The notes below the pieces were generated by a model. It searched no databases, was not told the DNA's origin, and saw only the letters and a program-made list of their open reading frames with translations. Shown here piece after piece: positions 12,959 through 52,971 of a stretch of DNA of 64,000 nucleotides; position 1 is the first letter of the stretch, and each line of letters opens with the position of its first letter. The position numbers and the translations under genes are program-made. Where the stretch lies: NCBI GenBank assembly GCA_019749895.1, contig JAIEPG010000002.1, positions 66,244 through 130,243 on the forward strand, written 5' to 3'. The stretch is from Candidatus Babeliales bacterium. Its GTDB lineage: Bacteria; Babelota; Babeliae; Babelales; RVW-14.

Positions 12959-14665
12959 CTACAGTCCAGGCTCGTCGGATTCTTGCACGTAGGCAACTGC
13001 AAGCACTTCATCGATGGTAGTTATGCCTTCTTGAATTAACCGTACGCCATCCAGACCCAACAGCGTCATGCCGGCTTTAAGCGCCTGGTCACGCACCACA
13101 TTTGCATCGGCTCGTTGAATAATCAGGCGGGCAATGGCATCGTCAACCTCCATAACTTCAAACACCGCACAACGGCCACGGTAGCCCGTTTGTAGGCACT
13201 CGTCACAACCAACAGGCTTATAAAAAGTTATGCTGGCAGCTTGGGCAGCCGTTATGCCAAGACGGCGAATAGCTTCAGCATCGGGCTGGTAAACTTGGCG
13301 ACACTCAAGACACAAGGTACGTACCAAGCGTTGTGAGATAACCATAATTAATGAAGAAGCAATAAGAAACGGCTCAACGCCCATGTCGATCAACCGCGTA
13401 ATGGTTGCCGGTGCGCTGTTGGTGTGAATGGTGCTTAACACCAAATGACCGGTCAAGGCAGCTTGTGTTGCAATTTCTGCCGTTTCACGGTCGCGAATTT
13501 CACCAATCAGCACCACATCGGGGTCTTGTCGCAAAATAGATCGTAAAGAAACGGCAAACGTTAGCCCTGTTTTTTCATTAACCGGAACTTGATTCACACC
13601 ATGCACGGTATATTCCACCGGATCTTCAACGGTAATAATGTTAACGTCGGGCTGGTTTAAGCGATTTAAAATGGCATAGAGCGTAGACGTTTTACCAGAA
13701 CCGGTTGGACCGCTCACCAAAATAATGCCGTTAGGGCGTTCAATGGTACGCAGCATCAACTTTAAATCTCGCTCTGCCATACCAATTTTTTCTAAATCTT
13801 TAGTGCCCTTACCTTTGTCGAGCAAACGCATAACCACACGCTCACCAAAATTGCAAGGCAAAATGGACACACGAATATCAAATGCACGGTCGCCCACTTT
13901 AATTTGAATACGCCCATCTTGCGGTATCCGCTTTTCGGCAATGTTGAGATGCGCCATAATTTTTATACGCGAAACAATAGCGCCCTGGTAGCGCTTGGGC
14001 GGAATAACGCGGGAATATAAATTACCATCAATGCGGTAACGCACACGCAACTCTTTTTCATACGGTTCAATGTGAATATCTGACGCACCTTCTTTTACCG
14101 CCTGAAACATAACGTGGTTGACCAGTTTTACAATGGGCGCTTCGTTGGCCATTTCCATAATATCTTTGTCTTCAATGGAACTAAAACCGAACTCATCTTC
14201 GCCTTCGGTAAGCTCTTCCATCATTTCTTTACTACTTTCTAGCGGGTAGTATTTGTTGATGGCGTCCATAATAACTAAATCGGTAGAAACGGCATAACGC
14301 ACATCACCGGCCATGAGTAGTGAAAGATCGTCCAACGGCTGCAAGTCGTGCGGGTTGGCGGTTACCAACGTTTTTTGGCCTTCAAACATGATAGGAATTA
14401 CCATGTGCTGACGCAAAAATTTGAGTGGCACTTTGCGCAACAGCTCAAGGTCGGCCATTTGTTCGGTAATCAGCTGGATGAAGGGAAGCTGCATCTGCTC
14501 GCCCAGCGCACGAGCAACGTCATGCTTTGAAGCAAAGCCACGCTCAATAAGAATAGTACCCAGCAATTTGCCGGTCGATTTTTGTTCTTTTAAACAATCA
14601 TCAAGCTGCTCTTTGGTAACAATTCCAAGATCGATAAGAATATCACCAATTTTTTTTCTCAGCAT
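12959..14665 (-). CDS. GspE/PilB-family type II secretion / type IV pilus assembly ATPase
   Basis: N-terminal T2SSE_N-like domain (GDILIDLGIVTKEQLDDCL..LGEQMQLPFIQL). Walker A GPTGSGKTST. Asp/His boxes. Tetracysteine CLECR..CDEC. I prefer the start at 14665 (MLRKKIGD), with AAGGAG 9 nt upstream, over 14683. Confidence 0.9.
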   Translation of the reverse strand: MLRKKIGDILIDLGIVTKEQLDDCLKEQKSTGKLLGTILIERGFASKHDVARALGEQMQLPFIQLITEQMADLELLRKVPLKFLRQHMVIPIMFEGQKTLVTANPHDLQPLDDLSLLMAGDVRYAVSTDLVIMDAINKYYPLESSKEMMEELTEGEDEFGFSSIEDKDIMEMANEAPIVKLVNHVMFQAVKEGASDIHIEPYEKELRVRYRIDGNLYSRVIPPKRYQGAIVSRIKIMAHLNIAEKRIPQDGRIQIKVGDRAFDIRVSILPCNFGERVVMRLLDKGKGTKDLEKIGMAERDLKLMLRTIERPNGIILVSGPTGSGKTSTLYAILNRLNQPDVNIITVEDPVEYTVHGVNQVPVNEKTGLTFAVSLRSILRQDPDVVLIGEIRDRETAEIATQAALTGHLVLSTIHTNSAPATITRLIDMGVEPFLIASSLIMVISQRLVRTLCLECRQVYQPDAEAIRRLGITAAQAASITFYKPVGCDECLQTGYRGRCAVFEVMEVDDAIARLIIQRADANVVRDQALKAGMTLLGLDGVRLIQEGITTIDEVLAVAYVQESDEPGL

Positions 14666-14733
14666 ACTGCCCAGCTCCTTCATTTAGCATCAGATTTTTA
14701 TACGTGGTCCAGAGTGTATCAGATGGGTGGTAG

Positions 14734-40693: not shown

Positions 40694-43141
40694 CTAGCCT
40701 TTGATGACAAAACTAATTAAGCGATCTTGCACAAAGACCGTTTTAATAAGTTCTTTGTCTTCAAGCCATTTGGCAATCTGTTCTTTGGCAAGTGGCTCTA
40801 CATCAGCCTGCACTAAGCCTTTTGTCAAAAGTATATTGCCACGCAGCTTACCATTAACTTGAATTGCATATTCAACTTGAGAAACATGCGCCAGCTCAGC
40901 GTTGTACGCAGGCCAGGTACACTGTGCCAATTGTTTATTCAACAGCTTTTCAATCAACTCACTGGCAAAATGCGGCACCATAACTGAAAGCGCGGTCAAA
41001 AATTGTTCAAGCATTTCACGGTCGAATTGCAATTTTTGACTCGTCAAATCATTCAAATATTCCATAACAGCCGATACAGCAGTGTTAACTTTAAACGTTT
41101 CCAAGCGTTGTTGGTAATCTTTTAAAAACTGATGGAAGCGTTGTTGCGCAGATTTTTCTGCTTTTTTACCAGCAGGCAACAATGTGCTTTCGGCAGTCAA
41201 AAACAACCACAAGCGATTTAAGAAACTATAAACGCCCCTGATCGATGCCGTTTGCCATTCAGTATCAAGCTCTGGTGGCCCCATAAAAAGCATGTACATA
41301 CGCAGCGTGTCGGCACCCATTTCTTCAACAATTTCGTCCGGGTTAACCACATTGCCTTTAGATTTTGACATTTTTTCAACACGCCCAGAAATGGAGCTCT
41401 TCATACACACCATGCCTTGATTGAACAGTTGTTTAAACGGTTCATCAAATGGCAAGTGACCAAGATCATGCAACACTTTAACATAAAAGCGCGCGTACAA
41501 AAGATGCAAAATGGCATGCTCAATACCGCCAACATACAAATCAACGGGCAACCAATGCTGCATGTCACGCTCACTAAATGGCTTGTCGGTTAAGCCTGGG
41601 TTTGGATAACGCAAGAAATACCAGCATGAACCTGCCCATTGCGGCATAGTGTTAGTTTCTCTCTTTGCTGGTACGCCACATTGTGGACACGGCGTATTAA
41701 CCCATTCAGTAATAGCAGCCAGCGGCGACTCACCGGTTCCCGTTGGTTGATAGCGCTCAACCTCGGGCAACACGATTGGTAATTCATTTTCTGGCACCGG
41801 AACAACACCGCAAACATCGCAATGCACCAGAGGGATAGGCTCACCCCAATAACGTTGGCGCGAGAAAATCCAGTCACGCAAACGGTATGAAACTTTGCGT
41901 TCGGCCAAGCCCTTGTGTTCACAATACTCAATAATTGCCTGACGCACATCACCCGCACGTTTGCCAGCAAACTGGGCCGGGGCCTGCAAAATGCCATGCT
42001 GCATATCGGTATAGCACACTTCTTGGTTTTGTACCTGAGCAGCCAAAACTGGATCTTCAGGGAACAAAACAGGCTTGAGCGGTATGCCGTATTTTTTAGC
42101 AAATTTAAAGTCACGCTCATCGTGCGCAGAGCATTTAACAATGCCAGTCCCATAATCTTTTATGGCAAAACTGGCAACCCAAATTGGCAGGTCACCATTA
42201 CCAACCGGATCAACAATATAGCGACCGGTAAAGATACCTTCGATCTCTTTTTCTTCAAATTTATTTTCATTACGCTTATGAAGTAAGGTTCTGCAATACT
42301 CAAGAACTTCTTTTTCACGCTCGGTACCTGCCAACAATGTCGGCAAAAATGGATGGTCCGGCGCTATAACCACAAACGTATCGGCACCAAAAGCTTCGAA
42401 ATGAGCGTTAAAGGTCTGTAAAGTAAGGTTGGTGTCTTTGACCGGCGCGGTAAAAACTAGCCCCTCACTCTTGCCAATCCAGTTGCTTTGCATAAGCTTA
42501 ACTTTTTCAGGCCACTCAAGCTTTTCAAGGCCTTGAAGCAATTTTTCGGCATAATCGGTAATCCGCAAAACCCATTGACGCACGGGCTTTTGCTCAGTTG
42601 GCGAGCCACAACGCTCACACCCGCCAGCAACAACCTCTTCATTGGCAAGGCCGGTAAGGCACTTTGGGCACCAATTAATGGGCATGCTGTCTTGGTAGGC
42701 AAGACCTGCTTTGTACATTTGCAAAAAGATCCATTGGGTCCATTTGTAGTAAGCAGGATCGGTGGTATCAACCTCTTTGCTCCAGTCGTACATAGAACCA
42801 ATGTAGGCAAGTTGGCGCTTAAAGTTGGCAACGTTGCTGGCAGTACCGCCTTTTGGATGAATTCCTTTTTTAATAGCATCGTTTTCTGCTGGCAGGCCAA
42901 AGGCGTCCCAACCCATTGGATGCAGCACATCGTAACCTTGCAGCCACTTCATGCGGGCATAAACGTCTGAAAACACATAACCCTTCCAGTGGCCCACGTG
43001 GATACCAGACCCGGACGGATAGGGAAACATGTCTAGACAATAAAACTTCTCTTTGGACTGATCATTCTTCATCTTGAAGTAAGGATCTTTTTGCCAAGAA
43101 TTACGCCATTTTTCTTCAACAATCTTAAAATCGTAACTCAT
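40694..43141 (-). CDS. leuS: leucine--tRNA ligase
   Basis: HIGH-type [17 protein letters not shown] motif KMSKSKGN. Zn-like CPKC..CERCG. CP1 editing region present. I prefer the ATG at 43141 ([16 protein letters not shown]) over the GTG at 43159. Confidence 0.95.
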
Positions 43142-43302
43142 CGTTGTGCCCTTGGTCACCGTAAATTGGTGCGTTCTTTAAGTAGCCTTTGCCTACAGCT
43201 TTAGTTGTCCCATTGTAGTCCAAAAGAGAAAAAATGGCCAAAAATAAATCACCTGCCTCTGTCTTCATAGCACTTATTAAAAATAATTACAAATGTGAAT
43301 TA

Positions 43303-43332
43303 TTGACTTTGCAAGCCTGATTTAGCTACCAT
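43303..43332 (+). promoter_or_regulatory. candidate promoter of the C11 peptidase cluster
   Basis: TTGACT-N18-TACCAT. The same TACCATAAA string as at the hicAB promoter follows it. It lies about 70 nt upstream of 43401. Confidence 0.25.
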
Positions 43333-43400
43333 AAAGATAGATAACTATGAATAAGATCGAATAAAAAGGGACTTTCTGATCCTCTGAGGGGGGAATAGTA

Positions 43401-44837
43401 ATGAAGATTTTGGCACGCAACTGTAGACCTATCGTTTCAAATAATAAAAATATTTTTCTATTTGCACTTTTTATTATTTGGGGATCATCAGACGCACAGG
43501 CTATTTCTCGACCAAAAACATCACCTACCCCTCAAATCATTGCTCAAGTCGCCAAGCAACCTGAAGCTGAGTGGACCATGCTTATTTATGCACAAGCCAA
43601 CAATTCGCTGAGCAAATTTGCACACCGCAACTTTGCTGACATGGCAACCATTGGCTCCAACCGAAACCTCAACGTTTTGGTTCAATGGTACCAACCAGGT
43701 CAACAAGGCATTTGGCGCTATCAAATTAATAAAGGTCGCATGGATCTTGATGAATGCATCACACAACCAACTGACGGCAATAAAGCCCAAGACCTTGTTG
43801 ATTCAATGGAATGGGCAGTTAAAAAGTACCCAGCAAAAAAATATTGTCTGATTTTATGGAATCATGGCATGGGAATTGTTGACCCACTGTGGGGTAACTC
43901 GATACAAATGATTCAGCCCAAAATGATGAAAAACAACCCTCGAATCCAAATAGCAGGCCTAACGCAAGCAGCACCAGCGCAGGCAAAATTTCAAAAGATT
44001 GAAAAAAAAACAGCAAAAAATCATCATCGCGGTATTTTATTTAACGAAAATTCTCGTACCTACATGACTAATCAAGTCCTTTCCCAAGCCCTGGAAGAGA
44101 TCAAAACACGCGTACTCAACAATCGCAAAATCGATCTACTCGGTATGGACGCCTGCTTGATGGCAATGATTGAAGTTGGCTACCAAGTTCGTAACTACGC
44201 TGCATACATGGTTGGCTCGCAAGAAGTTGAATTGGCTTCCGGCTGGGCATATCAACCACTCCTACAAAAGCTTACTACAGCTTCACTTACGCCGGCACAG
44301 TTTGCGCAAGAAATAGTTACCAACTACCAAAATCTTTATAAAAACAAAATACAATTTTATACACAATCAGCCATAGATCTTGAAAAAATAGATATGTTAA
44401 AAGATTCTATCGACGCAGTTGTTCACGATATTGCTGTGTGTAAAGAACTTGATCCTGCAAATTTTGCCAATATTATAAAAAAAGCACGTAACAGCTGTAT
44501 TCAGTTTAGTACGCAAAGCTACATCGACCTTCATTCATTTTTTTCTGAAGTTTTAAGCCACATAACCACAACGTATGCCAACCGCGCACAGGCAAAACGC
44601 CTGCACCCGCTTACCAACGCAGTAGCAAAACTCAAAGAATCGCTCGCTCTAAGCATGCAAATATTAGACAGTGTTGTTATTGCCAACACTTCCGGCCGTT
44701 ACCTGTCTAATGTTAAAGGGCTTTCAATTTATTATCCACAAGCCGGAACCGGCATCGACAATTCATACAGCAAAACTGAGTTTGCTCAAGATTCTTCTTG
44801 GCATATATTTTTGCAAAAAATTCTTGCTTTACAGTAG
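43401..44837 (+). CDS. exported clostripain-family (peptidase C11) cysteine protease, paralog 1
   Basis: Family-typical AEWTMLIYAQANNSL. His context LILWNHGMGI. Cys context LLGMDACLMAMIEVGYQ. N-terminal hydrophobic segment IFLFALFIIWGSSDAQA. Confidence 0.8.
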   Translation: MKILARNCRPIVSNNKNIFLFALFIIWGSSDAQAISRPKTSPTPQIIAQVAKQPEAEWTMLIYAQANNSLSKFAHRNFADMATIGSNRNLNVLVQWYQPGQQGIWRYQINKGRMDLDECITQPTDGNKAQDLVDSMEWAVKKYPAKKYCLILWNHGMGIVDPLWGNSIQMIQPKMMKNNPRIQIAGLTQAAPAQAKFQKIEKKTAKNHHRGILFNENSRTYMTNQVLSQALEEIKTRVLNNRKIDLLGMDACLMAMIEVGYQVRNYAAYMVGSQEVELASGWAYQPLLQKLTTASLTPAQFAQEIVTNYQNLYKNKIQFYTQSAIDLEKIDMLKDSIDAVVHDIAVCKELDPANFANIIKKARNSCIQFSTQSYIDLHSFFSEVLSHITTTYANRAQAKRLHPLTNAVAKLKESLALSMQILDSVVIANTSGRYLSNVKGLSIYYPQAGTGIDNSYSKTEFAQDSSWHIFLQKILALQ

Positions 44838-44845
44838 GAAACATT

Positions 44846-46159
44846 ATGAATAGTGGTAAAAAAAAAATAACGCAAATACTGCTTACCATAACACTCCTTA
44901 GCGCATCGTTTGCATCTGCCAAGCGACAACCAGAAGCAGAATGGACGGTTGTTACGTACATTCAGGCCGACAATAGCCTTGCGCCTTTTGCTTTAAAAAA
45001 CATTCAAACCATGCAGCAGGCGGGATTAAAAAATAAAATAAATATTTTAGTACACTGGAACATGCCAGAAAATAAAAAAATTGTACGCTACCTCGTTACC
45101 AAAAATGCACTAATCGAAGATAAAGATATCAAAGTAAAAACTTATGAGGACCATGAAAAAAGCTTAGTTGATACTATGAAATGGGCAGCAACTAACTACC
45201 CTGCAAAAAAATATATGCTTAATTTTTGGAATCATGGTAGCGGCATTATTGACCGCGTTAACTATTTAAAAGGCAGAAGTCAACTTCGCACTCATTGGCT
45301 AGAAACTCCAGGCCTGGAGCAAGAATCAGCATTTCGTGGCATCCTTTATAGCGATACTAACCACACGTATCTAGACAACCAACAACTCGCACGGTCACTG
45401 GAAGCAATCACGCTCACGCTAGGCAAAAAAATTGATGTGATAGGTATGGATGCGTGCTTTATGGCAATGCTAGAAATTGGGTATCAAATTAAAGATTATG
45501 CTAAAGTTTTGGTTGCTTCACAAAACTCAGAACCCGGACGAGGCTGGAATTATGCAGAGTTTTTAAATAAACTCAGCAAAGAACCACATCTGGTTAATGC
45601 ACAAAAACTTGGCAAACATATTGTTAATGCTTACCAAAAACTCTACGCAGGGGATGTTAATTTTTATACACAATCGGCAATCAACTTGCGTGCACTTGAT
45701 CCAATAAAAGAAAATATTAATCAGCTGGTTGCTTGTCTTGAGCATTGCAAAAATTTAAACGAAAAAAAAATTAGAAAAGCTATTCAAACAGCTAGCAACA
45801 TAACCCTCAAATTTCATATGCACGACTTTGTTGACCTTCATTCTTTTTATACTGCTCTGCTGAAAGCAACAAGTAAACGATCTCTCTACGATGCCAGCGA
45901 ACAACGGACAACCACTGGATATACAAAGGCATTGAAAAAGCTTCGGGCAACGCTACAAGAAGGACTTGCCACTATAAACCAAGCGGTATATACCTCAGCA
46001 GCAGCACCAACATACAACCGTGCGCGCGGCATCTCAATTTATTTACCACGAAAAAAAATCCATCATTCCTATCCAAAAACAATGTTTGCTCAAGAAAGCT
46101 TGTGGCTCCATTTTTTAGAAACATTTTTTTGCTCTCAACATGCTGTCACAAGCGAGTAG
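44846..46159 (+). CDS. exported clostripain-family (C11) cysteine protease, paralog 2
   Basis: ATG at 44846 with AGGAA upstream (MNSGKKKITQILLTITLLSASFASA). Motifs AEWTVVTYIQADNSL, FWNHGSGI, VIGMDACFMAMLEIGYQ. Confidence 0.8.
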   Translation: MNSGKKKITQILLTITLLSASFASAKRQPEAEWTVVTYIQADNSLAPFALKNIQTMQQAGLKNKINILVHWNMPENKKIVRYLVTKNALIEDKDIKVKTYEDHEKSLVDTMKWAATNYPAKKYMLNFWNHGSGIIDRVNYLKGRSQLRTHWLETPGLEQESAFRGILYSDTNHTYLDNQQLARSLEAITLTLGKKIDVIGMDACFMAMLEIGYQIKDYAKVLVASQNSEPGRGWNYAEFLNKLSKEPHLVNAQKLGKHIVNAYQKLYAGDVNFYTQSAINLRALDPIKENINQLVACLEHCKNLNEKKIRKAIQTASNITLKFHMHDFVDLHSFYTALLKATSKRSLYDASEQRTTTGYTKALKKLRATLQEGLATINQAVYTSAAAPTYNRARGISIYLPRKKIHHSYPKTMFAQESLWLHFLETFFCSQHAVTSE

Positions 46160-46162
46160 CTC

Positions 46163-47380
46163 ATGAAAAAATTGCTCGTGCTAGGCATAGTACTGGCTCT
46201 TACCACTATACCTTTGTATGCTCAAGCTGACTGGACAATTTTAAATTATATCGAAGCAAATAATAACCTTTCTTTTTTTGCCAACAACAATATTGAAGCT
46301 ATGAAACTGGTTGGCTCAACATCAAACGTTAATATCTTGGTGCAACTTTCTGAGCCAACAACAAAAAAAACCTGGCGCTATAAAATAAAACAAGGCGGGA
46401 AAACAAATCATACTTCACTGAACAAAGATATGGGCCTTGATCCTGAAAAAGAGCTGATCGATGCAGTACTATGGGCTCACACGCACTACCCAGCAAAACG
46501 CTTTATGCTTATTTTTTGGAACCATGGTGGCGGCATTATAGACAAACACAAGAGTAAAAAAATTTATGAGCAGCATCAAAAAAAATATTCGCGCACGCGC
46601 TCTATTCTTTACAATTATCAACATGAAACTTTTTTAACTAATCAACAGCTTGAAAGGGCATTAAAACAGATTAGTGAAGTTAGAGGCAAAAAAATTGATA
46701 TCATTGGCATGGACGCCTGCCTGATGGCAAGCATCGAAATTGCTTACCAAATAAAAGATTATGCTGATTATTTTATTGCTTCGGAAAATGTTGAAATTGC
46801 TCCAGGTTGGTGTTATGGCAACTTTTTGCGCAAATTGATTGCACAGAGCACCATGTCGCCACTAAAGCTTATGGAAACCATTATTTCTTCATTTGCCAGC
46901 ACCAACGCAATAAGAACCCCGCACTATACGCTTTCGGCAATAAAACTAGATCTTATGAACAAAATTTCAGACCATATTAACAACGTCATACTGGCATTTT
47001 ATGCGCATAAAGATAGCGCAGACACTAATAAAATTGAGCAGGCAATTTTAAAGGCACATGCAAAAACAAATCAATTTGAAAATACGGGGTATTTAGATGC
47101 TCACCATCTGTTTTTTAATATCGAAAAAGAAATAAAACAGCTCTTAAAACAGAGAAACGCGTCAAACAAAGAATACCTACAAACCTTGATCACTCAATTG
47201 CATGCCGCTCGCTTGGCAATTCGCCAAGCAGTTGTGTATAACCAAACAGGTAGTTCGTACCAAAAATCCAAAGGCCTTACTCTTTATTATCCAAAAAAAT
47301 CTATACATAATTCTTACGAAAACACCAGATTTGCACTCGATACTTTATGGCTCTCATTCATCAAAGAACACCGTCCTTAA
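46163..47380 (+). CDS. exported clostripain-family (C11) cysteine protease, paralog 3
   Basis: MKKLLVLGIVLALTTIPLYAQ. Motifs ADWTILNYIEANNNL, FWNHGGGI, IIGMDACLMASIEIAYQ. It starts 3 nt after the paralog 2 stop. Confidence 0.8.
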   Translation: MKKLLVLGIVLALTTIPLYAQADWTILNYIEANNNLSFFANNNIEAMKLVGSTSNVNILVQLSEPTTKKTWRYKIKQGGKTNHTSLNKDMGLDPEKELIDAVLWAHTHYPAKRFMLIFWNHGGGIIDKHKSKKIYEQHQKKYSRTRSILYNYQHETFLTNQQLERALKQISEVRGKKIDIIGMDACLMASIEIAYQIKDYADYFIASENVEIAPGWCYGNFLRKLIAQSTMSPLKLMETIISSFASTNAIRTPHYTLSAIKLDLMNKISDHINNVILAFYAHKDSADTNKIEQAILKAHAKTNQFENTGYLDAHHLFFNIEKEIKQLLKQRNASNKEYLQTLITQLHAARLAIRQAVVYNQTGSSYQKSKGLTLYYPKKSIHNSYENTRFALDTLWLSFIKEHRP

Positions 47381-47485
47381 GCTTTTAATTTCATTATTCA
47401 TCTCAATTCTTGATTACGTATCACCAAGATTTTTACACTTGGCCAGTTGTTCATTATCTTACCAACTGTAATCAAGGAGATGTTT

Positions 47486-48700
47486 ATGAAAAAACGTTTA
47501 CTGTTACTTACTTTCACCCTCATTCTTACACAACAAGCCGTAGGCGCTTTGGCTGAATGGACAGTTTTAACCTACATTCAAGGCGACAATGATCTTGACC
47601 CCTTTGCCGATTTCAACATTCGAGATATGCAAAAGGTTGGCTCAACAGCCGCTGTGAACATTGTAGTTCAATGGGACCAACCCAACAATAATAAAACATG
47701 GCGCTACAAAGTTAATAAAGGCTCACGCACCGACGTTGGCACGCTCAATTTAGAAATGGGCGTTAATGCCAAAAATGAACTTGTTAATGCAATTCAGTGG
47801 ATAAAAAATAATTACCCAGCAAAAAAATACGCTTTAATTTTGTGGGACCATGGAAATGGAGTACTTGACCGCACATTAAACAAAACACTCCAAACAAACT
47901 CCTGGCTTGGCCTTCCCGGTTGCAAAAACCTCTTCCAAGATCGAGGCATTTTGTACGATTACACCCAAGGAACTTTTTTAGACAACAGCGATCTTTTATA
48001 CGTCTTGCAGCAAGCAAAAAATATTCTTGGGCAAAATATTGATATCTTAGGCACTGATGCGTGCTACATGGGAATGCTTGAACTTGGTTACCAAGCCAAG
48101 GATTATGTAAATTATTTTGTAGCGTCGGAAGAAACTATCCCTGGCGAAGGCTGGCCATACTCAGGCTTCTTGGATCCACTAATAAAAACACCCACTCAAA
48201 GTGCATTAACGTTATCAAAAAACATAGTTTCTGCCTACAAGTCATACTATCGCACAACGCGTGATGTTACTCTGTCATCGGTTGACTTAAAGAAAATTCC
48301 AGCACTAAATACAGCACTTAACGCAGTCATTCAAGAGATTAATAGCATCGCACAAACCAACCAAGCCACAATGCGCAACGCCGTCAATAAAGCTTACACA
48401 AAATCAACTCACTTCTCTCAGTACGCTTACATTGATTTGTACACATTTTTAAACAATCTCGCATCAGAAACAAAAAAAAATAAAGCCCTTGGCACAAAGA
48501 CTCTTGCAACCACATTGACTAATGCTATGAATACATTGGCTTCTTCTGTTGTTGCAAATGCTGTAGGCGCAGCGTATCCAAAAGCACGAGGTATTTCTAT
48601 TTATTTCCCAACAGACCTTGATTTTAGCAATGGCTATACTGACACATTATTTTACCAACAATCGCAATGGGTTAACTTTTTAAATACATACGTTAGTTAA
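47486..48700 (+). CDS. exported clostripain-family (C11) cysteine protease, paralog 4
   Basis: ATG at 47486 with AAGGAGA upstream (MKKRLLLLTFTLILTQQAVGA). Motifs AEWTVLTYIQGDNDL, LWDHGNGV, ILGTDACYMGMLELGYQ. Confidence 0.8.
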   Translation: MKKRLLLLTFTLILTQQAVGALAEWTVLTYIQGDNDLDPFADFNIRDMQKVGSTAAVNIVVQWDQPNNNKTWRYKVNKGSRTDVGTLNLEMGVNAKNELVNAIQWIKNNYPAKKYALILWDHGNGVLDRTLNKTLQTNSWLGLPGCKNLFQDRGILYDYTQGTFLDNSDLLYVLQQAKNILGQNIDILGTDACYMGMLELGYQAKDYVNYFVASEETIPGEGWPYSGFLDPLIKTPTQSALTLSKNIVSAYKSYYRTTRDVTLSSVDLKKIPALNTALNAVIQEINSIAQTNQATMRNAVNKAYTKSTHFSQYAYIDLYTFLNNLASETKKNKALGTKTLATTLTNAMNTLASSVVANAVGAAYPKARGISIYFPTDLDFSNGYTDTLFYQQSQWVNFLNTYVS

Positions 48701-48719
48701 AATAAGAAAGCAGTTTTCT

Positions 48720-49337
48720 ATGAAAAAAATTATACAGAGTTCACTACTATTTTGTGGCTTTTTATCGTCATGCTTTGCTGTTGAGAGCAAAGAAAGCCTT
48801 GCAAAAAACAGTAAAGCGATAAACAATAAAAAACTTTCTGAAGCTCTTATTTCCAATAACCAACCATTTTTACATAAATATCTTGATTCAAAAAATATTG
48901 ATTCACGCGACAAAAACAATAACACCCTTCTCCATAAAGCAATAGAGCTTGGCCACGAACACGCAATAGCACTTCTTCTCAATAAAAAAGCCAATGTAAA
49001 TGCTCTCAATAACAAAAACAAAACCCCTCTTCATATTGCCGCGAAAAAAGGAAACACCAAAGTTGTTATCTCTCTGCTTGCCAACAAAGCAAAAGTAAAT
49101 GCTAAAACAAACAAAAACAAAACGGCTTTACACTACGCTGCACAAAAGGGAAATAAAGACATTGTCGCAACTCTTTTGTCACAAGGCGCTGATATTACCG
49201 CTTTTGACAGATTTGCCAGAACACCAATGCACACGGCAATTGAAAACAACCAAATTGAAGTTATGCAAATGCTTGAAAAATACGCACAAACGCTTGCCAA
49301 AAACCCAGGCAAAACAAACCAAAATGAAGACAACTAA
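48720..49337 (+). CDS. exported ankyrin-repeat protein (about 4 ANK repeats)
   Basis: Signal-like MKKIIQSSLLFCGFLSSCFA. Repeats: NNTLLHKAIELGHEHAIALLLNKKANVNA, NKTPLHIAAKKGNTKVVISLLANKAKVNA, NKTALHYAAQKGNKDIVATLLSQGADITA, ARTPMHTAIENNQIEVMQML. Confidence 0.85.
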   Translation: MKKIIQSSLLFCGFLSSCFAVESKESLAKNSKAINNKKLSEALISNNQPFLHKYLDSKNIDSRDKNNNTLLHKAIELGHEHAIALLLNKKANVNALNNKNKTPLHIAAKKGNTKVVISLLANKAKVNAKTNKNKTALHYAAQKGNKDIVATLLSQGADITAFDRFARTPMHTAIENNQIEVMQMLEKYAQTLAKNPGKTNQNEDN

Positions 49338-49366
49338 ATTTGCCTTAGCCTTAGTATAAACAAAAA

Positions 49367-49394
49367 AGCCCCTCAATCAGGAGGGGCTTTTTTG
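49367..49394 (+). terminator. rho-independent terminator of the C11/ankyrin cluster
   Basis: AGCCCCTC-aatcag-GAGGGGCT perfect 8-bp stem followed by T6. Confidence 0.75.
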
Positions 49395-49470
49395 TTTGCC
49401 ACGTAAAAAAAATTATGCTTATACTTAATGAAAATTACCATCATACCGCCCAACGTACCATGGAGAGCTC

Positions 49471-50100
49471 ATGAGCCAAACAACGCCAAAAAGTACCCCC
49501 GTCACCAAACAAGACGAAAAAATTTTAGTGGTCCCCGCCCGCAAGCTTTTTTCGAGCAATTCAATCAACGGCTTTCATCCACTTAAAGATTTCGATTTTT
49601 ACGCAAACTTGATTGCCACCAACAAAGAATTTTTGTGGCGCTCCGACATGGAACAAGACGCAACCTACAAACAAATTATCCCGTATCTTATCTTTACGTA
49701 CAACGACAAATATTTCTTAATGCAACGCAGAGGGTCTGCCAGCGAACAACGATTAAAAAATAAGCGCACGCTGGGCATTGGCGGGCATATCCGCGAAGAC
49801 GATATTGCCGGCAAAGATATTATTGACTGGGCAAAGCGCGAGTTTCACGAGGAAGTAAATTATGATGGCACGCTTGATGTTGAAATTTTGGGCCTGATTA
49901 ATGACGAAAGTAACGAGGTAGGCATGGTACACACCGGCTTTGCCTTCTTACTCAAAGGCAATAACCCCAACATCAGCATTCGCTCAGAGCTCAAAGAAGG
50001 GCATTTATTAACACTTGAAGAATGCGCAGAATATTACGACGCCATGGAAACATGGACACAACTTGTTTTTAACTTTTTACAGCAAAGAACCCAAGGATAA
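49471..50100 (+). CDS. Nudix/MutT-like phosphoesterase (degenerate Nudix box)
   Basis: IIPYLIFTYNDKYFLMQRR..LGIGGHIREDD..DWAKREFHEEVNY resembles a Nudix fold. The GX5EX7REUXEEXGU box is imperfect. Confidence 0.5.
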   Translation: MSQTTPKSTPVTKQDEKILVVPARKLFSSNSINGFHPLKDFDFYANLIATNKEFLWRSDMEQDATYKQIIPYLIFTYNDKYFLMQRRGSASEQRLKNKRTLGIGGHIREDDIAGKDIIDWAKREFHEEVNYDGTLDVEILGLINDESNEVGMVHTGFAFLLKGNNPNISIRSELKEGHLLTLEECAEYYDAMETWTQLVFNFLQQRTQG

Positions 50101-52165: not shown

Positions 52166-52281
52166 TAAAATAAGTCAAAAGAACGACTTCAGTAGTGCTA
52201 TTGTGCCATATTTAATGATTTTTGCAAGCAAATCCTAAACTTTCTTCTGTAAAGAAATGCTCGAGTACCAAGCCATCATCG

Positions 52282-52971
52282 CTACCTAGCAAGAATTTCT
52301 CGCCCTGCACCCACGGCATCTCTATGAACTTTATCTTCATCAAGAATAAAGCGACCAAGTAGGTATTGCTTAAAATGTTTCTTGCGCAGCAGTAAAGTAC
52401 AATAGCCGGTTTTCAATGGTACAACATCAAGTTCTTTAACAAGTAACTGCATCGACTGTTTTACCCGCTCAAGGTCTTCTACACAGCTGGCCATAAGTTC
52501 AATTTCGAGAAATGTACCAAGACCAGCAACTTCATCAACACATATCGTAAATGCATCGCGCTTATAAGTAGTACGCCGTTTATCAACAACATAGTGCTCA
52601 ACAAAATTGTTAACATATTTAAGATGGTCAAGATCAGCTATAATAAGCGGTTTTAAATCGAGGCTTACCAGTAAGGGATTAAGTCTTTCCAAATCTTGTA
52701 CTTGCAATGGCAAGGCAAAACTATGCTCTTCGCAATAGTCTTGAATCGCTAAATCAGGATTTTCAAGCGTTGCACGATTAAATTTTATGTCCAATTTTTT
52801 GTTGTTGCGAATGCGTACAAAAATGCCCCTTTGATAAAGCAGCACTTGAGGATTGTCCAGATAAATATCGACATCATGCTTTTGATGTAATGTATCACAT
52901 GATGAGAGGAATGAAGCAAGCTGTTGCGTCGTACGCAACTCATAACGCAGCTCAATTTCAAAATGGTTCAT
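52282..52971 (-). CDS. CYTH-domain protein (CyaB-like class IV adenylyl cyclase / triphosphatase family)
   Basis: Starts MNHFEIELRYEL (an ExExK-like first strand). Motifs FVRIRNNKKLDIKF and GTFLEIELM. Size 229 aa and no signal peptide. Confidence 0.65.
   Translation of the reverse strand: MNHFEIELRYELRTTQQLASFLSSCDTLHQKHDVDIYLDNPQVLLYQRGIFVRIRNNKKLDIKFNRATLENPDLAIQDYCEEHSFALPLQVQDLERLNPLLVSLDLKPLIIADLDHLKYVNNFVEHYVVDKRRTTYKRDAFTICVDEVAGLGTFLEIELMASCVEDLERVKQSMQLLVKELDVVPLKTGYCTLLLRKKHFKQYLLGRFILDEDKVHRDAVGAGREILAR

Follow-up and report, generated by a model that had tools for sequence, protein, structure and literature searches.

The 64,000-nucleotide stretch analyzed here (the window; contig JAIEPG010000002.1 of Candidatus Babeliales bacterium, assembly GCA_019749895.1, 1.56 Mb in 16 contigs) carries a row of five plus-strand genes, of which four encode peptidases of the clostripain family C11 and the fifth encodes a small ankyrin-repeat (ANK) protein. 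With a probability of about 0.72, the block represents a conserved operon of a host-dependent bacterium, encoding four C11 (clan CD) peptidases that arose by ancient duplication and are exported by Sec; the ANK gene in it is most likely a passenger. As a locus it is an ordinary, well-preserved exported protease operon, and its analysis gives a clearer description of a known kind, not a new system. The five genes occupy the following positions in the window:

43401–44837, plus strand: C11a, 478 residues, predicted exported C11 peptidase zymogen (PF03415 E-value 7e-38), first gene after the leucyl-tRNA synthetase (LeuRS) gene in the family; key residues H155, R210, D250 and C252, with a long activation linker of 55 residues.
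44846–46159, plus strand: C11b, 437 residues counted from the ATG, predicted exported C11 peptidase (PF03415 E-value 9.8e-37).
46163–47380, plus strand: C11c, 405 residues, predicted exported C11 peptidase (PF03415 E-value 1.2e-39), beginning 3 nucleotides (nt) past the C11b stop codon.
47486–48700, plus strand: C11d, 404 residues, predicted exported C11 peptidase (PF03415 E-value 1.3e-52); key residues H122, R153, D191 and C193.
48720–49337, plus strand: ANK gene, 205 residues, product predicted to be exported (Ank_2 E-value 8.4e-28, Ank_4 E-value 2.4e-29).

An earlier note on this DNA, made from the sequence alone, had described four consecutive plus-strand C11 paralogs followed, 19 nt after the fourth, by a 205-residue ANK protein with a signal-like N-terminus. 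Open reading frame (ORF) coordinates and matches to the Peptidase_C11 and Ank profiles bear out this arrangement, and the ranges of protein lengths and gaps given in the note fit the refined start codons. Signal-like N-termini, also described there, can be recognized by eye in all five translations: the start is basic, a hydrophobic segment follows, and then comes a small-x-small site of the cleavage type.

The assignment of the four proteases to family C11 is supported by profile, alignment and structure comparisons. All four match the Pfam profile PF03415 (Peptidase_C11) with E-values of 9.8e-37 to 1.3e-52 and scores of 127–180 bits, the curated cut-off being 25.8 bits. Three paralogs cover the 359 positions of the profile nearly completely, and C11a matches it in two stretches, the best of which spans positions 104–356. 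The paralogs are as highly diverged as the note had stated, the remaining three being only 34–36% identical to C11a, and the motif blocks it had named at the N-terminus and around the catalytic His and Cys are real: residues W58, T59, Y63, N68, L70, W153, H155, G156, G158, D250, A251, C252 and M254 (C11a numbering) are invariant in the four proteins. A profile built from the four paralogs matches every solved C11 structure, with E-values of 2e-24 to 7e-8.

These comparisons also place the active site. In PmC11 of Parabacteroides merdae, H133 and C179 are the catalytic pair, D177 is the main residue of the Arg/Lys pocket and Lys147, with which clostripain Arg190 aligns, is the required self-activation site (McLuskey et al., PMC4850288). 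The D-A-C motif of the four-paralog profile aligns with PmC11 D177/C179 (positions 30 and 32 of chain B, 3uws_B, which starts just after the self-cleavage site Lys147). In the alignment of C11d with clostripain (9cip), H122, R153, D191 and C193 correspond to H176, R190, D229 and C231, respectively, and the segment DRGILYD aligns with N189-R190-A191-ICWD of clostripain. All four paralogs keep the catalytic His and Cys, which align with clostripain H176/C231 and PmC11 H133/C179, and all four have the substrate-pocket Asp two residues before the Cys, the counterpart of PmC11 D177 and clostripain D229. The earlier note had proposed to give up the C11 assignment should the catalytic residues fail to align with those of known C11 enzymes; they align with both clostripain and PmC11. 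By their sequences, all four are genuine C11 peptidases in which the catalytic residues are preserved.

The AlphaFold model of C11d is of high quality (predicted local distance difference test, pLDDT, 90.5; predicted template modelling score, pTM, 0.89), and its only disordered part, residues 131–150, lies just before R153. A Foldseek comparison of this model with the Protein Data Bank returned C11 peptidases as the top 11 matches (best E-value 6e-19), with target-normalized template modelling (TM) scores of up to 0.79, or 0.59–0.76 for full-length chains, and no non-C11 structure was found at an E-value of 0.01 or better. As regards the zymogen trait of the family, sequence and model show a putative self-cleavage site, a conserved Arg that aligns exactly with clostripain R190, stands at a fixed distance from the Cys and follows the loop disordered in the model.

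The same residues are conserved in 57 C11 proteins from 20 Babeliales loci: the His in 55 of 56, the Cys in 55 of 57, the Asp in all 57 and an Arg or Lys at the activation site in 55 of 56. The Arg and the Cys are 40–42 residues apart (41 in clostripain) in all rows but one, in which the pattern search picked the wrong residue, while the linker between the His and the Arg ranges from 13 to 82 residues and bears clade-specific motifs. Two proteins depart from the pattern, both encoded by the third gene of their arrays. In genome G003 (L034:5319-6608) the His is replaced by Arg, the Cys by Ser and the activation Arg by Leu, and in genome G010 (L033:6236-7633) the Cys is replaced by Asn; both look like pseudo-peptidases from their sequences. 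The joint loss of His, Cys and Arg in the G003 paralog is what one would expect of an Arg that serves an activation dependent on catalysis.

C11 peptidases are not peculiar to this genome, which has seven C11 genes at three loci. PF03415 was found in 41 of the 41 closest genomes searched and, in a sample drawn from the whole phylum, in 150 of 151 genomes and all 96 genera, compared with 3 of 14 control genomes. The surroundings of the array were surveyed at 20 loci from 18 related genomes, two of which, G001 and G002, belong to the same genus as the source genome. The following elements flank the five genes in the window:

40694–43159, minus strand: LeuRS homolog, named from sequence motifs as read; conserved divergent left border.
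43303–43332, plus strand: candidate sigma-70-type promoter of the array, TTGACT-N18-TACCAT, located by a consensus scan.
49357–49398, strand not applicable: predicted intrinsic terminator hairpin with A-tract and T-tract flanks, −27.6 kcal/mol, z = −5.2.
49471–50100, plus strand: NUDIX-like gene, 209 residues, with a weak NUDIX match (E-value 7e-4, just under the cut-off); conserved right border.

The recurring order is a divergent LeuRS gene, a C11 array of two to four genes, a variable slot (the stretch between the last C11 gene and the NUDIX-like gene), the NUDIX-like gene and a transketolase gene. This layout is shared by seven or more other genera of the family, and by more still if loci truncated by contig ends are counted. 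Both borders are seen in G001, G002, G005, G008, G013, G017 and G018, and one border is seen in several further genomes whose loci are cut by contig ends. The LeuRS homolog is directly upstream of the array in the same seven genomes and in G020, and the NUDIX-like gene is syntenic with transketolase in at least 10 genomes. In a maximum-likelihood tree, the array members fall into four orthogroups that follow array position in the order a-b-c-d, with branch supports of 93–96% for group a (always the first gene), 99% for b, 90% for c and 95% for d. It follows that the genes had duplicated before these genera diverged and that the copies have stayed distinct.

All five genes of the block are under purifying selection, with ratios of nonsynonymous to synonymous substitution rates (dN/dS) of 0.08–0.22: 0.08 for C11a (compared with G002), 0.12 for C11b, 0.18–0.22 for C11c and 0.14–0.21 for the ANK gene. 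Positive selection on C11c, C11d and the ANK gene was considered and rejected (dN/dS 0.10–0.22); the lower identity of these genes to G001 goes with higher dS and a mosaic pattern of identity. Between positions 42000 and 53000, the segments 43000–45300 (C11a and the start of C11b) and 52200–52800 are 100% identical to G001 (L031), the housekeeping flanks are 88–92% identical, and C11c, C11d and the ANK gene are 74–82% identical, with dS varying from 0 to 1.14 across neighbouring genes. Such a mosaic is a sign of one of two things, recent recombination among co-existing strains or chimerism of the metagenome bins.

The layout of the block resembles that of a single transcription unit. With refined starts, the gaps along the five-gene row are 8, 3, 105 and 19 nt. 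The listed ORF of C11b begins at an upstream TTG (44798) and that of C11d at a TTG at 47447; we place their most likely starts at the ATG codons at 44846 and 47486, which are preceded by the Shine-Dalgarno-like sequences AGGA (overlapping the C11a stop codon) and AAGGAG, each 6 nt upstream. In the LeuRS–C11a intergenic regions of seven genera, neither the −35 box ATTGACT nor the TA...T within the −10 box varies, and TA(G/C)CAT follows ATTGACT after 17–18 nt; this conserved pair matches the promoter-like site at 43303–43332, the function of which is predicted from these features. Upstream of the −35 box, an A/T-rich block at 43270–43300 (AATAATT.C.AAT) is partly conserved across genera and may be an UP element or an operator.

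At the other end, the strong terminator that the earlier note had seen after the ANK gene is well formed. Its 18-bp stem has the core GCCCCUC/GAGGGGC followed by six U, and none of 200 shuffled sequences folded as well. Given its A-tract and T-tract flanks, the hairpin may act in both directions; a promoter-like site directly after it (49396–49425) belongs to the NUDIX-like gene. A different long hairpin occupies the same position, after the ANK gene, in G002. No hairpin was found in the 19-nt gap between C11d and the ANK gene, and on the plus strand the block contains a single internal terminator-like site, which falls in the coding part of C11c and has no proper T-run. The operon-like block of the note thus does look like one operon, with short gaps, AGGA over the C11a stop codon, one conserved promoter and a single end hairpin, and the four C11 genes and the ANK gene are probably co-transcribed.

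The ANK protein matches the Ank_2, Ank_4, Ank, Ank_3 and Ank_5 profiles above their cut-offs (Ank_4 with 101, Ank_2 with 97 and Ank with 93 bits). As read from its sequence, it consists of three canonical 33-residue repeats flanked by degenerate N- and C-terminal capping repeats, with TPLH/TALH-type repeats at about residues 67–165. A signal-peptidase I site, CFA|VE, fits all of its orthologs; an alternative reading as a lipoprotein, based on a lipobox-like LSSC, was rejected, as the G001 ortholog has FSLC and the −1 position is not conserved. Matches to NCBIfam models of Legionella Dot/Icm Ank effectors were dismissed as generic, since they cover only the repeats and score 27–66 bits, compared with cut-offs of 450–1400. 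A search of the Protein Data Bank returned 402 ankyrin chains with E-values of 1e-8 or lower, all of the generic ankyrin and designed ankyrin repeat protein (DARPin) type.

Its distribution is much narrower than that of the peptidases. Orthologs after the fourth C11 gene occur only in the two genomes of the same genus (83% and 61% identity), and a search of 5.8 billion proteins found only two close relatives (99% and 65% identity), the remaining matches being generic repeat similarity over part of the protein. G013, G014 and G018 have nothing in the variable slot; elsewhere it is occupied by an AAA ATPase (G003), a DUF2807 protein (G005), an 806-residue low-complexity protein (G008) or two unrelated, convergently oriented small ANK genes (G009), and in G002 an extra 740-residue protein comes after the ANK gene. 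G009's unrelated genes aside, ANK adjacency is absent from the 18 family-level loci outside the genus. Across another 40 C11 loci, all from other families of the Babeliales and together 445 kb long, there are four ANK-like ORFs; only one of these loci has an ANK gene next to C11, on the upstream side. The best 120 homologs of C11d all carry PF03415 only, and there is no C11–ANK fusion among them.

The source genome is itself rich in ANK genes. It has about 75 ANK ORFs, roughly 80% of which have signal-like N-termini; 73 of about 1,353 genes (5.4%) encode ANK proteins, and a co-oriented ANK gene lies immediately downstream of 2.3% of the non-ANK genes. The gene sets for these statistics come from a simple ORF caller, and the ANK counts, obtained with a single-sequence phmmer query applied alike to the genome and the loci, are lower bounds. 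One gene in twenty is an ANK gene, and adjacency to one therefore carries little information by itself. The specific ANK–C11 link put forward in the earlier note is not supported by this survey. The synteny comparison it had suggested shows an adjacency that is confined to one genus, is not conserved in relatives outside it, an outcome that the note had listed among those refuting its reading, and recurs, upstream, at one of the 40 further loci. Within the genus the adjacency is real and persistent; it does not belong to the C11 system as such. The ANK gene is most likely a genus-specific passenger, one of roughly 75 exported ankyrin effectors, not a dedicated protease subunit.

The array has several close counterparts among known systems. 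Clostripain of Hathewaya histolytica (9cip), the type enzyme of MEROPS family C11, has a similar fold (query-normalized TM 0.66–0.67), aligned H176, D229 and C231 and a common motif R-[GA]-I-[LC]-[YFW]-[DN] around Arg190; it is secreted as a zymogen, as the Babeliales enzymes are predicted to be. The two differ in sequence (about 18% identity in the structural alignment) and in the His–Arg linker (about 14 residues from H176 to R190, as opposed to 13–82), and the Babeliales enzymes come as four to seven paralogs per genome of a reduced intracellular bacterium. The best sequence and fold matches are PmC11 (3uws, 4yec) and the Bacteroides C11 peptidases (6n9j; 6nag, 'iotapain'; 6mzo, a zymogen; 5dyn, fragipain), with E-values down to 2e-24 and target-normalized TM up to 0.76. 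These share the catalytic pair, the equivalent of Asp177 and, as predicted for the Babeliales proteins, a single-chain zymogen with a self-cleavage loop, but they come from free-living gut anaerobes and are mostly single genes, whereas the Babeliales proteins form separate phylum-wide orthogroups in a conserved tandem array and have Arg where PmC11 has Lys147. Within the Dependentiae, secreted C11 peptidases were reported in Chromulinavorax destructans together with 98 ANK proteins, 78% of them with signal peptides (Deeg et al. 2019, PMC6561590), a repertoire that matches that of the source genome; the tandem array, its synteny, the four orthogroups and the activation-site Arg are not described in that paper.

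Taken together, these features suggest the following scheme. The conserved promoter would drive transcription of four zymogen genes and the ANK gene up to the hairpin. Each C11 peptidase would be made as a zymogen, exported by Sec and carried across the outer membrane by secretin or type II secretion system (T2SS)-type machinery; in the source genome, three matches to secretins and two to T2SS-E-type ATPases make such a passage plausible. The zymogen would then activate itself by a cut in the flexible linker at the conserved Arg, the homolog of clostripain Arg190 and PmC11 Lys147, and the activated enzyme would cleave after Arg or Lys by means of its His/Cys pair and pocket Asp. The products would be broken-down or processed host proteins, and possibly processed exported proteins of the bacterium itself, during intracellular growth in a protist. 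Host-protein breakdown is most likely the main role of these enzymes in a bacterium whose metabolism is minimal. What chiefly sets the paralogs apart is the activation linker, which varies in length and in its motifs, and their retention as separate groups in a fixed order points to a division of labour.

The window also contains a gene for a T2SS-E/PilB-type ATPase (574 residues, 12959–14683, minus strand; G000 C16:79244-80392), and the gene of a secretin is found just upstream of the point where the window begins. Either could belong to the route by which signal-peptide proteins are exported.

The position of the ANK gene invites a different interpretation, in which its product would be a dedicated C11 partner made from the same transcript, be it a periplasmic inhibitor for self-protection, a chaperone or a targeting subunit, and the shared transcript would keep the proteases silent until they are outside the cell. 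A direct precedent exists in Bdellovibrio bacteriovorus, where Bd3460, a 23-kDa signal-peptide ANK protein co-transcribed downstream of bd3459, blocks the endopeptidase sterically; the two form an established self-protection pair, and their synteny is common to periplasmic predators (PMC4686830). The likeness lies in a small signal-peptide ANK gene directly downstream of secreted peptidases, here after a 19-nt gap with no terminator in between and with the operon terminator following the ANK gene in both the source genome and G002. In addition, all three genomes of the genus have the ANK gene in this place, with dN/dS of 0.14–0.21. However, Bd3459 attacks peptidoglycan as a serine DD-endopeptidase and does not belong to the C11 cysteine peptidases, and the resemblance in sequence to the Bdellovibrio pair is that of generic ANK repeats: the repeats are near the generic ANK consensus, and Bd3460 (5cea) is not among the 60 Protein Data Bank matches listed of the 402. 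Synteny of the Bdellovibrio type, shared by relatives that bear the peptidase, was not found at the loci surveyed, for nearly every Babeliales genome has C11 arrays without this ANK gene, the gene has no orthologs outside the genus, the slot in other genera is empty or filled with unrelated genes, and none of the best 120 C11d homologs carries an ANK domain. With ANK genes making up 5.4% of the genome, such an adjacency is expected by chance fairly often, and C11 enzymes are already self-inhibited as zymogens (PMC4850288). A dedicated partner, whether Bd3460-like or of another sort, therefore appears improbable, and the same holds for the idea, drawn by analogy with Bd3460, that the ANK protein was newly recruited as a periplasmic 'safety catch' on one or several of the peptidases. 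The statement in the earlier note that a link between ANK proteins and these peptidases had not been described holds for C11 but not for peptidases at large, given Bd3459/Bd3460 (PMC4686830). Equally, the five genes might not form one transcription unit, with C11d, the ANK gene or both using promoters of their own and the clustering reflecting tandem duplication. A weak promoter-like site (47432–47460) in the 105-nt gap before C11d would suit this, as would the finding that promoter-like sites in the region are no more numerous than in shuffled sequence; yet the other gaps are too short for promoters, the sole plus-strand terminator-like site is the poor one inside C11c, only the upstream promoter is conserved across genera and the a-b-c-d order is conserved as well. 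We regard separate transcription as quite unlikely.

A more serious alternative concerns function. Fragipain, the solved C11 peptidase 5dyn that matches these proteins, activates the Bacteroides fragilis toxin, and the Babeliales enzymes could similarly mature exported pro-proteins of the bacterium itself without digesting host proteins. Such a role would be in keeping with the near-universal presence of C11 in the phylum, 0.8-Mb genomes included, with the fixed place of the C11a ortholog next to leuS, with the slower evolution of C11a compared to the other paralogs (dN/dS 0.08) and with the very large share of Dependentiae proteins that carry signal peptides (Deeg et al. 2019, PMC6561590). 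On the other side, no candidate substrate has been identified, the four to seven paralogs per genome, some of them fast-evolving, resemble an outward-facing battery, and Deeg et al. class secreted C11 peptidases with host-degrading enzymes, a classification that is itself inferred (PMC6561590). We consider this a serious alternative, if a rather doubtful one. Several points weigh against the preferred reading of a conserved protease operon with an ANK passenger. C11 is nearly universal in the phylum, which would be just as compatible with a housekeeping role; the ANK gene, which is under purifying selection, has held this exact position while its protein diverged by about 40% within the genus, as a true partner would; a small ANK gene with a signal peptide that follows the gene of a secreted peptidase has a proven functional precedent in Bd3459/Bd3460; and co-transcription is read from geometry and consensus motifs, with an internal promoter that may lie in the 105 nt ahead of C11d.

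The other C11 loci of the genome do not reveal a recurrent partner. The second locus (G000 C16:201643-207351), about 71 kb past the window end, consists of two repeats of a two-gene module, in which an exported protein of 450–465 residues similar to the N-terminal part of Kdo transferase (PF04413, E-values 4e-11 and 9e-21) is followed by a C11 peptidase; the third has a methyltransferase gene upstream. A recurrent C11 partner gene, whether an ANK gene or another, was accordingly rejected. The pairing of an exported Kdo-transferase-like protein with a protease is odd; C11 genes with the spacing of the second locus are also present in G001 and G002. Among the neighbours of the arrays, the 740-residue slot protein of G002 (L032:8470-10692) and a 408-residue protein just beyond the array in G020 (L037:5522-6748) share the motif SCGYHAL..N, which resembles the active site of a cysteine peptidase or deubiquitinase, and neither has a Pfam match. 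In G017 (L035:2960-4953), three small exported paralogs of 192–221 residues, each starting with MQTKK, are encoded on the opposite strand between the first and second C11 genes of the array; they have no Pfam matches either.

The advance over existing knowledge is incremental. C11 homologs are already named 'clostripain-related cysteine peptidase' by NCBI, with the closest ones assigned to Candidatus Babeliales or Dependentiae, and we found no literature combining Dependentiae or TM6 with clostripain or peptidase C11. What is added is the near-universal presence of C11 in the phylum, the conserved operon of four orthogroups and the conserved activation Arg beside a hypervariable linker. The result also guards against over-reading the ankyrin neighbour. 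To our knowledge, no ANK–peptidase self-protection pair is known for C11; if the safety-catch idea were true after all, the ANK protein would be the first ankyrin-type inhibitor of a clan CD cysteine peptidase, and this would suggest that some of the numerous exported Dependentiae ANK proteins control the bacterium's own secreted enzymes, besides manipulating the host. The Dependentiae, protist parasites that are widespread and for the most part uncultured, exploit their hosts by means that are barely known. C11 peptidases amount to a core gene family in this phylum and, as enzymes that can be expressed and assayed, provide a concrete handle on how these bacteria exploit their hosts.

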